Assembly: GCA_037137655.1 (NCBI GenBank)
Contig: JBAXJX010000002.1
Location: forward strand, 1-35,729
Length of the DNA: 35,729 nt
Source of the DNA: Candidatus Falkowbacteria bacterium
Lineage (GTDB): Bacteria > Patescibacteriota > Patescibacteriia > Patescibacteriales > UBA12465
Direction of reading: 5' to 3'
Both the position numbers and the translations under genes were made by a program. Position 1 is the first letter of the stretch. Each line of letters opens with the position of its first letter. This document shows positions 5,357 through 10,808 of the stretch, piece by piece. The notes beneath the pieces are model-generated. The model saw only the letters and a program-made list of their open reading frames with translations. It ran no database searches and was not told the origin of the DNA.

Positions 5357-5424
5357 GGGGCTAGCGATGGCCGCGGGACGAACTTGACATTTGTCCTTTC
5401 GGGGTTCGATTCCCCGTAGCTCCA
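5357..5424 (+). ncRNA. Non-canonical tRNA-like RNA (Ala-type acceptor, UGA loop)
   Basis: GGGGCTA/TAGCTCC-A acceptor with G3.U70; GCG-ATGGC-CGC mini D-arm; 8-bp arm GGGACGAA-CTTGACA-TTTGTCCT; CGGGG-TTCGATT-CCCCG T-arm. Confidence 0.8.
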
Positions 5425-5441
5425 CAACGGCCAAAAACCCA

Positions 5442-5557: not shown

Positions 5558-6604
5558 TTAATCAAAAGAGATATTGCAATCCACCTTAAATTCATCCCAG
5601 GGCGTGAATTGTTTTTTAGCGTATTTGAAATAGCCGGCCGCGGCAATCATCGCCGCATTATCGGTTGTATAGGCCATGGCCGGAACACTAAAGGCCACTT
5701 CCGGTACTCTATCTATAATCGCGTCATTCATTTGGCGACGTAATTCGGAGTTAGCCGAAACACCGCCAGAGAGCATAATAGTTTTAACTTTATATTTTTT
5801 CGCCGCCTTAATCGTTTTACCAATTAAAGTTTCTAAAATTGCTTGTTGGTATTCATAACAATATTCCGGAATTCGTTTTTTCCAATTTTTATCTTTTTTC
5901 AATTGATAAAGCAAGGCGGTTTTTAAACCCGAAAAAGAAAAATTTAAATTTGGCGATGTTAACATCGGACGCGGTAAAACAATATCGGATTTTGGTGCTG
6001 TGCCATTGTTAGCTTTTAAATAATCATTAGCATAGCCCGCCACAATTGGTCCGCCTGGATAGCCAAGATCCATCATCTTCGCACCCTTATCATAAGCTTC
6101 GCCGGCCGCATCATCTAGAGTCTCGGCGATAATTTCATATTTTAAATAATCAGTCATTAATACCAAATTAGTGTGACCACCGGAAACGGTTAGAACTAAA
6201 GCTGGAAAATGAATTTTCTCTTTTGGTAAAATGAAGTTGGCACAAATATGGCCTTCGATATGATTAACAGTAATGAGTGGTTTTTTCCAGGCGCACGCCA
6301 AAACACGAGCGGTTTCTCCCCCGATGATAAGCGACGTTACTAGTCCAGGACCGGCCGTAACTGCTAGTGCGCTTAAATCCGCCGGCTTGATACCCGCTTT
6401 TTCAAGCGCCTCATTGACCACCGGGATCACATTTAAAACATGTTCCCTTGCAGCAACCTCTGGCACTACGCCGTAATATTTTTTATGGATTTCAATTTGA
6501 GACGAAATGACATTTGATAAGACGTTTAATTTCTTATCTTTAGCCACTAAAATTACACTGGCCGCCGTTTCATCACAACTGCTTTCAATTCCTAATATAT
6601 ACAT
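5558..6604 (-). CDS. tsaD: tRNA N6-adenosine threonylcarbamoyltransferase TsaD
   Basis: LGIESSCDET, GVVPEVAAREH, NHIEGH, VSGGHT, DDAAGEAYDK, FSFSGLKT, TDNAAMIA. Confidence 0.97.
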   Translation of the reverse strand: MYILGIESSCDETAASVILVAKDKKLNVLSNVISSQIEIHKKYYGVVPEVAAREHVLNVIPVVNEALEKAGIKPADLSALAVTAGPGLVTSLIIGGETARVLACAWKKPLITVNHIEGHICANFILPKEKIHFPALVLTVSGGHTNLVLMTDYLKYEIIAETLDDAAGEAYDKGAKMMDLGYPGGPIVAGYANDYLKANNGTAPKSDIVLPRPMLTSPNLNFSFSGLKTALLYQLKKDKNWKKRIPEYCYEYQQAILETLIGKTIKAAKKYKVKTIMLSGGVSANSELRRQMNDAIIDRVPEVAFSVPAMAYTTDNAAMIAAAGYFKYAKKQFTPWDEFKVDCNISFD

Positions 6605-6644
6605 ATGCCAACATTATAAAGGATTTTTTAGAAAAAGCGAAATA

Positions 6645-6673
6645 TTGACAAGATATAAAAAAATATATAGAAT
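6645..6673 (+). promoter_or_regulatory. Sigma70 promoter of the tRNA-Glu/ncRNA unit
   Basis: TTGACA (6645-6650)-17 nt-TAGAAT (6668-6673). Confidence 0.8.
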
Positions 6674-6685
6674 AAGTCCTGTTAT

Positions 6686-6757
6686 GGTCTCTTCGTCTAA
6701 TGGTTAGGACACCAGGTTTTCATCCTGGTAACAGGGGTTCAATTCCCCTAGAGACTA
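6686..6757 (+). tRNA. tRNA-Glu(TTC)
   Basis: GGTCTCT/AGAGACT acceptor, CCAGG-TTTTCAT-CCTGG anticodon arm, AGGGG-TTCAATT-CCCCT T-arm; CCA not encoded. Confidence 0.96.
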
Positions 6758-6788
6758 CGAAATTATTATTTGTTCTTCTAAAAGAAAT

Positions 6789-7022
6789 AAATTCTGAAAC
6801 AACTTGGGAATTCTCGAGTTCGACTCTCGAGGGTTGGTTCAATGATAGATTGCTAAAGTGTAGGATAGGACCAGAGACTGTGAAATTTAGGCGTCAGCTT
6901 AAGTGGAGTCACCCTTGAAATATGGCCCTTGGCGATTGAAAGTTAATTAAGTTTGGTGAAAGTAGTTAGGCAAAAAAACTATGATTAGGGAATTTAATTG
7001 GTTTCGGCGAACATCAGAATTT
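6789..7022 (+). ncRNA. Putative structured RNA with a T-loop minihelix and a 23S L1-stalk-like domain
   Basis: Closing helix AAATTCTGA/TCAGAATTT; T-loop hairpin 6809-6835; GTGTAGGATAGG...GGAGTC.CCCTTGAAATA at 6858-6922; terminator follows. Confidence 0.8.
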
Positions 7023-7023
7023 T

Positions 7024-7050
7024 AGAGCGTTGAGAAATCAACGCTTTTTT
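7024..7050 (+). terminator. Intrinsic terminator
   Basis: AGAGCGTTGA-GAAA-TCAACGCTTTTTT. Confidence 0.85.
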
Positions 7051-7067
7051 TATTAGCTAAACTCAAA

Positions 7068-9635
7068 TTAATTTGGGCAAGTTCCCCATACTGGGTAATA
7101 AGAGGAGTTGCTTTCAAAGCCAGCACCACTAGAAAATAAAAAGGGTTGGCTAGTAATAAGAGAAACGCACCATGATGAAAGATTCTGATTAAAACTAGAA
7201 GCACCGCCAAACATAATATACATATTATTTACCTTAGACACATTCCACGAACCGATTGGCTGATTAAAATTAGTTGAACCTCTGAACATTTCTGCCATAT
7301 TAGTAACATTGGCAGTGTTCCATGAACCAATATTTTGATTAAAACCTGTGTAATAAAACATACTCCCCATATCAGTCACATTCGACACATTCCACGAACC
7401 AATATTTTGATTGAAGTTGCTTGTCCCGTAGAACATGGCTGACATATTGGTCACACCAACTGTATTCCACGAACCAATATTGCCGTTAAAACTGGTTGCT
7501 CCCATAAACACACCATACATATTTACAACCTTAGAAACGTCCCATGATCCGATGTTTTGATTAAAATTGGGAGCGCTACCAAACATAATATACATACTGG
7601 TAACCTTGCTAGTATTCCAAGAACTAATATTACCATTAAAATTAGAGGTGCTACGGAACATTTCTGACATATTAGCAACATTGGCCGTATTCCAAGAATT
7701 TAAATTTTGATTAAACGATATAGCCCCCTGAAACATATACCCCATATCAGTAACTTTAGAAACATCCCATGATCCGATATTTTGATTAAAATTAGAAGCG
7801 CCTTGGAACATAGCCGACATATTAGTTACGTTACCAGTATTCCAGGATCCAATATTCTGATTAAAATTAGAAGCACTTTGAAACATGGCGAACATGTTGG
7901 TAACCTTCGACACATCCCATGATCCGATATTTTGATTAAAATTATAAGCATTGCTAAACATAATATACATACTAACAACTTTGTTAGTATTCCACGCACT
8001 AATATCACCATTAAACAGATAGGCGTTACGGAATGTTTCTGACATATTATTCACATTGCCAGTGTTCCAAGAATTTAAATTTTGATTAAATTTGGTAGCG
8101 CTATTAAACGTACTATACATACTGGTAACCTTCGACACGTCCCACGAACCGATGTTTTGATTAAAGTTAACAGCTCCATTAAACATAGCATCCATACTAG
8201 TTACACTACCGGTATTCCAAGCGCCGATATCACCATTGAAGTTGGTGGCGCTTTGAAACATTTGATTCATATTAGTAACTTTAGACACATCCCACGATCC
8301 AATGTTTTGATTAAAGTTGTAAGCGCTACCAAACATAATATACATATTGGTAACTTTACTAGTATCCCAAGAACTAATATCTCCATTAAAATTGGTAGCG
8401 TATCGGAACATTTCCGACATATCGGTTATACCGGTAATGCCGTTTTGAATTGGAGTTAGAGCATCAACCAACATCGGTGCGTTGGCGCTATAATACCACA
8501 GTCTTAGAGCTGTACCTTTTGTCCCAATAACATATTCTCCGCCACTGCCATAGGTATGAGATGGGCAAACATAACCATTATAAGTATTAGAATTTCCATC
8601 ACCCCAAACAACCTCTAAATTTGAAGCACCACCAACACAAAACCCAAATGTTGTGCCACTACCTAAAGCAGTGTTAATTTTAACTTTGAAATAAGGGTCA
8701 TTCACACATTGATTATTTTGACAAAGTTGACCTGAGCCGCAAGTTAAAGCACCGCTAACCGTTTGCACATCACCACAATTACTAGTCTGACTAAAGGTGC
8801 CACACATTGAAGCTGAATTCGGAGACCAAGTTGACACCGTGCAGCCACACTGAGTTTCATTGCCGCCACCGCCACAAGTTTGGGGTGAGGTGCACTGTGT
8901 ATGATTAGTATTAGCAATTTGACCACCACAGCCGTCACTATAAGAATCACGACAATCACCAGAATTAGCTTCAAGTGGAGAGCAGCAAGAATTGCTATAA
9001 CAGACCTGATTAGCACCACAGTCATTGCCGCTACAATTTGTGCATTGCCCAGAATTACTACTACATGAAAGTGACCCACTGCAAGTTAACGGGCTTGGAT
9101 TATTAAGAGTTAGACCACAACCATTACTATAGGTAGCGCGACAATCGCCAGCCGGAGCTGACACCGGAACGCATAAACAACCAACACCATCACTAATTCC
9201 AGCTGGTGTCGCACAATGACCGCCGGCAGAAATAGAATTAACATTGCCACCGATACAATAAGAAATGGAATAAGAGGTTCCATCGGAGCTCGGGGAATAA
9301 ACATAATTTAAATTATCAGAGATTGAACAATTGCCATCGGCCGGACTTGGTGGAGTTGGAATTACGGCCATGTAAGTATTAGTGGAATAACCATCAGAAT
9401 AAACTAATGATCCGGCTGCAAATTCTTCTGAGGTCGGATAACGCTGAGCATCGTTGAAAAATAATTCTAGTGCAGTTTGCACTTGTTTCACATCAGCCAC
9501 GCGGCGGGCATCACGCGCTTTGGCTCGGGCATTTTGCAAGGCGACCACGGCGATAGTTGCGAGTATACCAATAATGGCAATAACGACTAGGAGCTCGATG
9601 AGGGTGAAAGCTGATTTTTTATATTTATTTATCAT
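7068..9635 (-). CDS. Type IV pilin-like adhesin: pilin head, Cys-rich linker, PKD-like domain, DUF285/BspA-type repeats
   Basis: KKSA|FTLIELLVV; Cys-rich stretch; V.WGDG...HTY...G.Y PKD-like motif; 17 repeats of [18 protein letters not shown]. Confidence 0.9.
7160..8430 (-). repeat. 17 tandem 25-aa (75-nt) DUF285-type repeats
   Basis: Counted in the translation; the DNA motif CCCA.GA.CC.AT.TTTTGATTAAA recurs on the + strand. Confidence 0.92.
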
Positions 9636-9662: not shown

Positions 9663-10808
9663 TTATTGAGAACCAACTCCCGGCGTCCAAGTAAAGTTAC
9701 CGACTAAATTTCCAGAATTTCCATGACCAGAATAATCATTAGCCACAACTCCACTATTTTCATCGAAGTGATAAGCGGCAATTAAACCATTATTAAATAA
9801 AGATGAGCTCATATTTCCATAAAGGCCTTTGCCATTATTATAGAGTTGGGAAATTTCAGAGCTCGACAAAGTGCGATCCCAGATACCAACCTCGTCAATC
9901 GCTCCAGAAAAAAATCTATCACCGGTTGCCTCATATGTGCCACCGATCCAAATTGGATAATCGTTTAAACCTAAATCCTCTACTGCGGTTGTACCAGAAT
10001 TAACTAAGCTTCCATCAATATACAATTTAGCATTATCAGTGCCACCAAATTCATCCCAAGTTCCGACCAAATAATGCCAGTTGCCATCATTCACATTAAA
10101 ATTAGTTGCCACATAAAAATCATTTATAGCACCACCGCTATCCAAAAACCACCATAATTCACCATTGGACCGAGGGGTTAAGGTATAAGATTGATGTGCT
10201 GGGTTAATCTCTGAAACTCCAGATATAATATATTCATCTTTTGCACTACCATTTCCCTTCACCCAAGCCGCCACACTAATATGTGACCGCGGTTTTAGAG
10301 AACTGCCAGAACCCAAATCGACGTAATTTGAACTACCATCAAAATTTAAAGCACTGCCACGTTTCAAGGTCATTGCGCCGCAACCATTTCCGTCATTAAT
10401 TCCGGCTGGAGTAGCACAATAAGAGCCGGAAGCTAAGGCTCCGGTTGGACCGCCAACACAATAAGCTATGGTATAAGAACTGCCGTCAGGAGATGGGGAG
10501 TAATCATAGCTAGTAATTGAACAGTTACCATCAGCCGTACTTGGCGGAGTTGGAATTTTAGATATATATGAACCAAAAGAAGAATTACTAACAAATTCAG
10601 CCGCGCTTGGATAATGCATTTTGCTAGCATAAAAAGCTTGCAAAGCAGTTTGGATTTCTTTGACATCAGCTACTCGCTTCGCGTCGCGAGATTTGGCTCG
10701 CGCATTTTGCAAAGCCACAATCGCAACCGTCGCCAACAAGCCGATGATAGCGATAACCACAAGAAGCTCAATAAGCGTAAAACCTGTTTTTTTATTCTTA
10801 TATTTCAT
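9663..10808 (-). CDS. Type IV pilin-like protein with C-terminal LamG/concanavalin A-like domain
   Basis: KTG|FTLIELLVV; ALNFDG...[41 protein letters not shown]. Confidence 0.9.

Follow-up and report, generated by a model that had tools for sequence, protein, structure and literature searches.

Within a 35,729-nt stretch of DNA from Candidatus Falkowbacteria bacterium (GenBank assembly GCA_037137655.1, contig JBAXJX010000002.1, positions 1 to 35,729; hereafter the window), we identified a structured RNA of ~235 nt (6789-7022, plus strand) that joins a tRNA-like domain to a free-standing copy of the L1 stalk of 23S rRNA. Comparison of homologous sequences indicates that a hairpin at 6809-6835, which a sequence-only reading of the window had proposed as a mimic of the tRNA elbow, is the T arm of this tRNA-like domain in a stand-alone small RNA. 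We favor a reading in which the tRNA-like elbow would dock on the double-T-loop platform of the stalk while the stalk would carry uL1. From the sequences we put the probability of this reading at roughly 0.4.

A T arm conserved among homologues

Read directly from the window, the hairpin comprises the strands aattctcgag (6809-6818) and ctcgagggtt (6826-6835) on either side of the loop ttcgact (6819-6825). It has 10 pairs, two of them U.G (6811-6833 and 6812-6832), around a 7-nt loop of T-loop form, just as the sequence-only reading had described it, and TGGG at 6805-6808 lies just 5' of it. Neither ARAGORN nor Rfam called a tRNA or other Rfam family on the hairpin. A scan of the whole genome (1.04 Mb) with the T-arm pattern G-T[TC]CRANN-C and a 5-bp stem returned 49 T-arm-like hairpins, 39 inside the 40 tRNAs and 10 outside, the latter including the hairpin at 6809-6835 and the tmRNA. 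Five block-shuffled genomes contained 2-6 such hairpins. When a 46-nt piece with the hairpin was folded alone, it gave a z score of -1.19 and 25 of 200 shuffles folded as well; the minimum free energy fold of the whole RNA did not include the hairpin. Since a lone hairpin could be due to chance, the case for a T arm rests on the comparison of homologues.

Homologues were sought with BLAST in 41 relatives, which yielded two, and with a covariance model built from three sequences. Full-length matches to the model (95-156 bits) were found in 7 of 148 genomes of the family, the source genome included. The other five family genomes with matches at E <= 0.01 contained genuine 23S-type stalks or tRNA 3' halves, and weak matches (22-33 bits) were rejected as homologues on the same grounds, since they fell either on genuine 23S stalks or on tRNA 3' halves with a terminator behind them. 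A sample of the order contained the RNA in 5 of 151 genomes, spread over three families, so that the RNA is both rare and patchy in its distribution. A strict pattern applied to 185,579 species genomes recovered 7 stretches, all of them copies of known homologues, and a second pattern applied to a metagenome collection recovered 8, which comprised 5 new sequences, 2 duplicates and 1 chance match. The chance match (L079) had no T-loop and was excluded from the alignment. Altogether 14 distinct homologous sequences were available, 13 in the alignment (A4) and one more. They are labelled Candidatus Falkowbacteria or Patescibacteria, except for two labelled Gammaproteobacteria, which are probably mislabelled bins. 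With blastn the RNA had no match in E. coli genomes, being too divergent for that program. The second pattern had no matches in viral contigs, and a phage origin of the RNA was rejected accordingly. A tRNA 3' fragment left by an integrating element was also considered and rejected: there was no genomic repeat, the neighbors were housekeeping genes and the segment was conserved as part of the RNA.

In the source genome the T arm, which is the core of the finding, occupies 6814-6830 on the plus strand, with a stem of 6814-6818 paired to 6826-6830 and the T-loop TTCGACT at 6819-6825. The T-loop is kept in all 13 aligned homologues and in the 14th sequence (TTCGATT). G53, T54, C56, A58 and C61 are invariant in the alignment, R57 is G in 12 of 13, and position 55 is T in 9 and C in 4. 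Of the positions outside the stalk head, these five rank with the best conserved, and they point to a sequence-specific tertiary role and not to a plain hairpin. Four of the five stem pairs change on both sides across the 13 sequences, and RNAalifold predicts the T arm independently; one homologue (G007) has a weak stem with two of the five pairs broken. All 14 sequences therefore share the features of a tRNA-type T arm, namely a 5-bp stem, a 7-nt loop with T54, C56, R57 and A58, and closure by G53-C61. We looked for homologues that keep the stalk without the T-loop, which would speak against a T arm in the tRNA sense, and found that all 14 keep both. The expectation that the hairpin would be conserved was thus borne out, both by the loops and by the covarying stem.

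The length of the stem required revision. All 10 pairs can be formed in the source genome, but the outer five use bases that pair in an acceptor-like helix, P2, in all homologues, and the 10-bp stem is therefore probably non-native. The conserved T stem has 5 bp. What was described as a 10-bp stem is probably this T stem stacked on the 6-bp P2, giving an 11-bp minihelix that, as judged from the alignment, would be like the acceptor-T limb of a tRNA. The 5' strand of P2 (CAACTT, 6800-6805, plus strand) pairs with its 3' strand (GGGTTG, 6831-6836, plus strand), which directly follows the T stem as in a tRNA and whose terminal TGG is invariant. Two of the six P2 pairs show double changes and three more change on one side: column pair 15/86 is AU in 9 sequences, GC in 3 and GU in 1; 16/85 is UG in 5, UA in 4 and CG in 2; and 17/84 is GU in 4, AU in 3, UA in 3 and UG in 1. 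P2 is absent from the RNAalifold prediction.

Between the P2 5' strand and the T arm, the source genome has a G-rich connector (GGGAATTC, 6806-6813, plus strand) in the place occupied in other homologues by a D-arm-like hairpin and a variable hairpin. The D-arm-like hairpin, P3 (GYGC-AAUGG-GCRC), is present in about 6 of 13 homologues and is followed by the variable hairpin with its 3-4-nt loop. Most homologues without P3 have GG just after the P2 strand, and in the source genome a bare TGGG stands in its place. The suggestion that TGGG could supply D-loop-like Gs is in line with this pattern, as a GG-containing segment is found just 5' of the T arm in most homologues, and the GG segment near P2 fits a D-loop-like partner for the T-loop. 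The accompanying statement that the hairpin has no D or anticodon arm is correct for the source genome, but most homologues have one or two extra hairpins at that position. An anticodon arm with a 7-nt loop is seen nowhere: the source genome has only the 8-nt connector, and the loop of the hairpin in homologues is 3-4 nt long.

The 5' domain thus shares with tRNA and with the tRNA-like domain of tmRNA a 5-bp T stem, a consensus 7-nt T-loop, an abutting acceptor-like helix and a G-rich substitute for the D-loop. It differs from them in that a free 3' end, CCA and an anticodon loop are all lacking, and its 3' strand runs into a linker and the stalk. ARAGORN and the Rfam tRNA model (RF00005) made no call at 6800-6840, the latter also left the 5' domain of homologue L084 without a match at E values up to 10, and ARAGORN called no tRNA at the RNA in 7 homologous loci. 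The tmRNA models (RF00023 and the permuted RF04321) found nothing on 6800-7022; an 11.3-bit permuted-tmRNA match lies in the neighboring tRNA-Glu.

An L1 stalk outside the 23S gene

The whole RNA, as delimited by the 13-homologue alignment and its covariation, extends from the 5' to the 3' strand of a terminal helix, P1. The P1 5' strand (6789-6797, plus strand) pairs with the 3' strand (7014-7022, plus strand), and 6 of 10 pairs change on both sides; the source genome has the compensatory CUGA/UCAG where the others have CAGA/UCUG. The minihelix is followed by a single-stranded linker at 6837-6847 (plus strand; GTTCAATGATA in the source genome, GCTTAAAGATA in most homologues) in which ATAG is invariant and whose length is constant except for one additional nucleotide in one homologue. 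The L1-stalk domain then occupies 6848-6937 (plus strand), with the lower and upper parts of H76, H77 and H78 and the conserved segments UGAA and GGAG, both invariant in 13 of 13 sequences. A variable region with one or more hairpins (6938-7013, plus strand) leads back to P1, with a conserved UUYAAWGR segment just 5' of the P1 3' strand.

Covariation was counted on the 13-sequence alignment, with coordinates given in the source genome. Over 46 pairs, 91.8% of cells were paired, compared with 80.2% in shuffles, and 29 of the 46 pairs changed on both sides, compared with 14.0 in shuffles; none of 500 shuffles reached 29. Slid-control structures had 32-46% of their cells paired. Every helix contributes to the covariation, including helices 5-8, which form the stalk, and RNAalifold independently predicts P1 and the stalk together with the T arm. 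The lengths of the minihelix, linker and stalk are near constant across the aligned homologues, as required for a fixed architecture.

Two further T-loop-like pentamers, UUCAA (6838-6842) and UUUAA (~6994-7003 in the source genome), flank the central junction, with UUYAA in most homologues; they could form another T-loop module. An H75-like pairing of the linker with the segment preceding the P1 3' strand was rejected: judged by eye, it fits the source genome, G001 and G029, and it fails in G007, M082 and M083.

The L1-stalk domain that the sequence-only reading placed next to the hairpin is real. Window positions 6848-6937 match positions 2126-2215 of the Rfam LSU_rRNA_bacteria model, corresponding to 23S helices 76-78 with H78 intact, at 38.7 bits (E 5.6e-11 in a small search). 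This is below the 50-bit gathering score of the family since only 90 of its 2925 model positions are present, and the stalk half is a copy of a 23S domain and not an rRNA gene. Sequence and secondary structure both align with the 23S L1 stalk, H78 and the conserved loop segments included, and every conserved segment of the stalk head is kept. The difference is that this stalk belongs to a gene of ~235 nt that stands apart, has ends of its own and is not embedded in a 23S gene. The RNA stretch has no second copy in the genome, and the 23S gene lies on another contig (C1:34783-37791; the RNA is on C2).

The 23S rRNA of the source genome has itself been shortened at this point. In the LSU alignment, 25 consensus positions of H77/78 are missing and H76 is capped by a UUCG tetraloop, such that the core of H76/H77 is retained and H78 is not. 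The short form was found in all 71 family genomes with a 23S match, among 148 searched (236-241 nt of a 241-nt query), and genomes that have the free RNA share an identical tip sequence with those that lack it; in one species of another family the tip is a GCAA tetraloop. The available part of Tsurumaki et al. (2022; PMC9297842) describes Falkowbacteria, along with other CPR groups, as having lost helix 78 ('23Gap3'), suggests an absent or incomplete L1 stalk for these groups, and in that part does not mention a separate stalk RNA. In two relatives we observed a second 23S-like locus with a full-length L1 stalk on another contig (L023/L097, G121:C4; L087, G255:C35), which could be a contaminant contig or reflect rRNA heterogeneity.

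The gene for uL1 is present in the source genome (198 bits), on a different contig from the RNA, and in 142 of 148 family genomes. From the conserved stalk segments and the presence of this gene, we infer that the stalk domain would bind uL1.

Proposed docking of the elbow, or possible binding of uL1 alone

In the L1 stalk head, in RNase P and in T-box stem I, interdigitated T-loops stack on the tRNA elbow. The RNA described here unites a complete receptor of this kind with a conserved elbow-like mimic, and for this reason we favor the idea that the mimic occupies the receptor. The stalk domain would bind uL1 as the 23S stalk does in other bacteria, and the corner formed by the T-loop and GG would adopt a tRNA-like elbow. 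This elbow would stack on the double-T-loop platform of the stalk, either in cis or between two molecules, and so reproduce the contact of an E-site tRNA with the L1 stalk. The outcome would be a closed, uL1-holding particle, its tRNA-docking face filled by a mimic of its own, with a possible physiological role in titrating uL1 or in competing with real tRNA. The notion of an elbow mimic beside an elbow receptor, put forward in the sequence-only reading, fits this anatomy of T arm, GG segment and abutting acceptor-like helix. Several observations weigh against docking. The 5' domain is tRNA-like only in parts, and the Rfam tRNA model is blank on it; position 55 is C in 4 of 13 sequences, the T stem of G007 is weak, the D-arm-like hairpin is confined to about 6 of 13, and P2 is not recovered by RNAalifold. 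The geometry is also demanding, as the stalk measures ~19 bp to its head and the minihelix ~11 bp, so that docking in cis needs the 11-nt linker to offset the difference. The rarity of the RNA (7/148 and 5/151 genomes) counts against docking as well: whatever its role, relatives with the same 23S rRNA and uL1 can dispense with it.

T-loops are general tertiary modules, and the T arm might be only a scaffold. If so, the tRNA-like domain would organize the multi-helix junction through an internal T-loop contact unrelated to the stalk head, and the RNA would act as a sponge or regulator of uL1, the full stalk being a site of higher affinity than the truncated 23S rRNA that titrates or stores the protein. 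The available part of PMC2175363 reports that domain I of uL1 binds a motif common to mRNA and rRNA, and that domain II adds a >10-fold gain in affinity for the full rRNA site. As the truncated 23S rRNA retains the H76/H77 core and has lost H78, the free RNA should prevail over it in competition for uL1. On the other hand, a near-invariant T-loop beside its natural receptor would then be a coincidence, the uL1 gene is unlinked and the RNA has no conserved neighbor, and for a ribosomal protein's core regulator so patchy a distribution would be strange. We consider a scaffold-only T arm on a uL1 sponge unlikely, and clearly less probable than docking.

A free-standing, expressed gene

On the plus strand a sigma-70-like promoter (TTGACA-17-TAGAAT, 11 of 12 matches) lies at 6645-6673, upstream of a tRNA-Glu(UUC) gene (6686-6758, 65.8 bits) situated 30 nt upstream of the RNA. 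In the scanned region (6300-7400) there was no other plus-strand promoter-like site upstream of the RNA, and none between 6674 and 6955. The tRNA-Glu and the RNA are probably co-transcribed, in the source genome only. In the 7 homologous loci that were scanned, no tRNA immediately precedes the RNA, and a tRNA-His is found ~700-850 nt upstream in two. For most homologues a separate TTGACA-17-TATAAT promoter lies just a few bases 5' of the RNA. An intrinsic terminator with a 10-bp stem and a T run follows at 7024-7047 (plus strand), and equivalent terminators follow the RNA in other homologues.

Two metatranscriptome runs each gave one RNA-library contig identical to the window, at 6803-7008 (depth 9.4) and at 6843-7021 (depth 3), respectively. 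There was no coverage of 6300-6800 or 7040-7400 in either library, and as these are contigs only, the uncovered parts are no sign of silence. The DNA run was flat at 42-45x over the region, and the RNA libraries came from samples that also hold the DNA. Both RNA contigs include parts that are not rRNA-like and thus do not represent stray rRNA of other organisms. The RNA is expressed; the evidence is contig-based and shows neither ends nor strand, and DNA carry-over is formally possible.

The neighbors in the source genome are YchF, tRNA-Cys, TsaD and pilin-like DUF285 proteins. Here and in G043 the gene downstream of the RNA is convergent, and no protein neighbor is conserved among the homologous loci: one pair of flanking ORFs is homologous (G007/G043, 28% identity), and the Pfam families are unrelated. 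Convergent and unrelated neighbors indicate that the RNA is a free-standing gene and not a leader. The proposal that the hairpin serves a T-box-like switch is not supported by this arrangement of a stand-alone gene with a terminator, varying neighbors and in most homologues its own promoter, nor by the T-box model, which gave no match.

Two of the minus-strand neighbors drew our attention as proteins. The product of 7068-9635 (855 aa) has an N-terminal prepilin methylation motif and seven DUF285 repeats, and that of 9663-10808 is a large protein with an N-terminal prepilin methylation motif and a laminin-G/concanavalin-like domain. Both are probably pilus-associated surface proteins.

A further possibility is that the T arm and acceptor-like helix are a handle recruiting tRNA enzymes (RNase P, RNase Z, TruB/TrmA-type) for maturation, modification or stability. 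tRNA-like ends serve as such handles in tmRNA and other RNAs, and an acceptor-T stack with a canonical T-loop, such as the 11-bp stack here, resembles the minimal substrates of tRNA enzymes. In the source genome the RNA follows a tRNA in one transcription unit, and the first base of the longer RNA contig, 6803, is 3 nt into the acceptor-like strand, which is a weak hint because contigs show no ends. However, the acceptor-like helix is internal, with neither a free 3' end nor CCA, and U55, the pseudouridine site, is C in 4 of 13 sequences. Cleavage on the 5' side of the helix would cut off the P1 strand, but the covariation of P1 is strong, and in homologues P1 begins within a few nucleotides of the predicted transcription start. 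For the same reasons, namely enclosure of the acceptor-like helix within the covarying P1 and the missing free 3' end, the RNase P signal suggested in the sequence-only reading is unlikely. An enzyme handle would moreover leave the L1-stalk partner domain unexplained, and we hold it to be as doubtful as the uL1 sponge.

Rarity of the RNA and the truncated ribosome

Loss of the stalk head from the 23S rRNA raises the question of whether the free RNA, together with uL1, supplies the lost tRNA-elbow platform in trans, with the tRNA-like domain anchoring or gating it at the E site. The 23S rRNA without H77/78 alongside a retained uL1, the presence of every conserved head segment in the free stalk and the expression of the RNA would all be consistent with such a detachable L1 stalk. 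Against it, 141 of 148 family genomes have no such RNA and share the same truncated 23S rRNA (where seen) and uL1. The 23S tip is a closed tetraloop, identical whether or not a genome has the RNA, and thus offers no evident place to dock, and a tRNA mimic in the E site would block the E site. We regard a detachable stalk as improbable, more so than either of the two preceding alternatives. A one-to-one replacement of the lost head was rejected: the truncation is family-wide (71/71 genomes with a match), the RNA is found in 7 of 148, and the tips are identical.

A more far-reaching version would have the stalk head leave the ribosome and live on as a horizontally spreading RNP composed of full stalk RNA, uL1 and tRNA mimic, which in trans would engage either ribosomes or deacylated tRNAs, its T arm serving as a gate that would yield to real tRNA by displacement. 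To this we give an equally low likelihood. The only hint of mobility that we observed is at one homologue (L085/L013, G029:C7), where a gene for a Mutator-family transposase (407 aa) lies directly upstream on the same strand. A functionless relic, produced by chance fusion of a tRNA fragment with a duplicated rRNA piece, would suit the rare and patchy occurrence and the copy beside a transposase gene, but is contradicted by compensatory changes in every helix, by promoters and terminators kept across differing contexts in three families and by RNA-library coverage confined to the RNA, and we consider it highly implausible.

Other RNA elements in the genome

A second tRNA-like element, which drew no call from either ARAGORN or the Rfam tRNA model, was observed at 5357-5425 (plus strand). 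Its acceptor stem is of the alanine type with G3.U70, its D stem has 3 bp and a loop of 5 nt, its T arm is perfect, and its anticodon-like stem of 7-8 bp has the loop CTTGACA. The tmRNA model scores it at 27.2 bits and the mascRNA-menRNA model at 32 bits, which is below the threshold of that family. Normal tRNA-Ala and tRNA-Ser(UGA) genes exist in the genome beside this element. Three relatives have full-length matches with 74-77% identity, and the remaining matches are partial, mostly to the 3' half with the T arm.

ARAGORN also reported an 87-nt tRNA-Trp(CCA) with its anticodon at position 39, ~900 nt upstream of the uL1 gene (G000:C1:380890-380976), which may hold an insertion or intron; a normal 72-nt tRNA-Trp is on C2. 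The small and large bacterial SRP RNA models match nothing in the genome, which is 95.6% complete, and its SRP RNA is either very divergent or unassembled.

Discussion

The modules from which this RNA is built are known. The distal module of T-box stem I and the S-domain of RNase P are elbow receptors of the same kind as the stalk head. What distinguishes the present RNA is that receptor and mimic reside in one molecule, with no specifier, antiterminator or regulated downstream gene. No T-box (RF00230) or RNase P match was obtained on it. A divergent tmRNA or RNase P RNA was rejected as an identity, both being found elsewhere in the genome (the tmRNA at C2:64995-65379, 126 bits), and SRP RNA was rejected because no SRP-like match falls on the RNA. 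The autoregulatory uL1 site in the leader of the L11/L1 operon mRNA is likewise a uL1 site in a non-ribosomal RNA (PMC2175363), the site in the present RNA being a predicted one. Such mRNA sites mimic the core motif only and act in cis, whereas the RNA described here has the full stalk with H78 and is unlinked to the uL1 gene.

The RNA matches no Rfam family, and in the full-text searches, which covered the main articles of openly accessible journals, we found no description of a free-standing L1-stalk RNA or of a fusion between a stalk and a tRNA mimic. For the combination of these modules, and for the separate encoding of an rRNA domain, we found no precedent, nor did we find a described counterpart of a functional rRNA domain that is encoded apart, in a small RNA of its own, and joined there to a mimic of its ligand. 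At ~235 nt in one molecule, it would offer a compact natural system for studying the interaction between the elbow and the double T-loop. Should it prove to be only a uL1 sponge, it would even then be the first rRNA mimic encoded in trans to act as a sponge for a ribosomal protein, and were the spreading RNP to be true, it would represent a detachable functional domain of the ribosome. The RNA occurs where, according to the available part of Tsurumaki et al. (PMC9297842) and the 23S alignment presented here, the ribosome has lost its stalk head, and it therefore bears on how E-site tRNA is handled and uL1 is bound in the reduced ribosomes of Patescibacteria.
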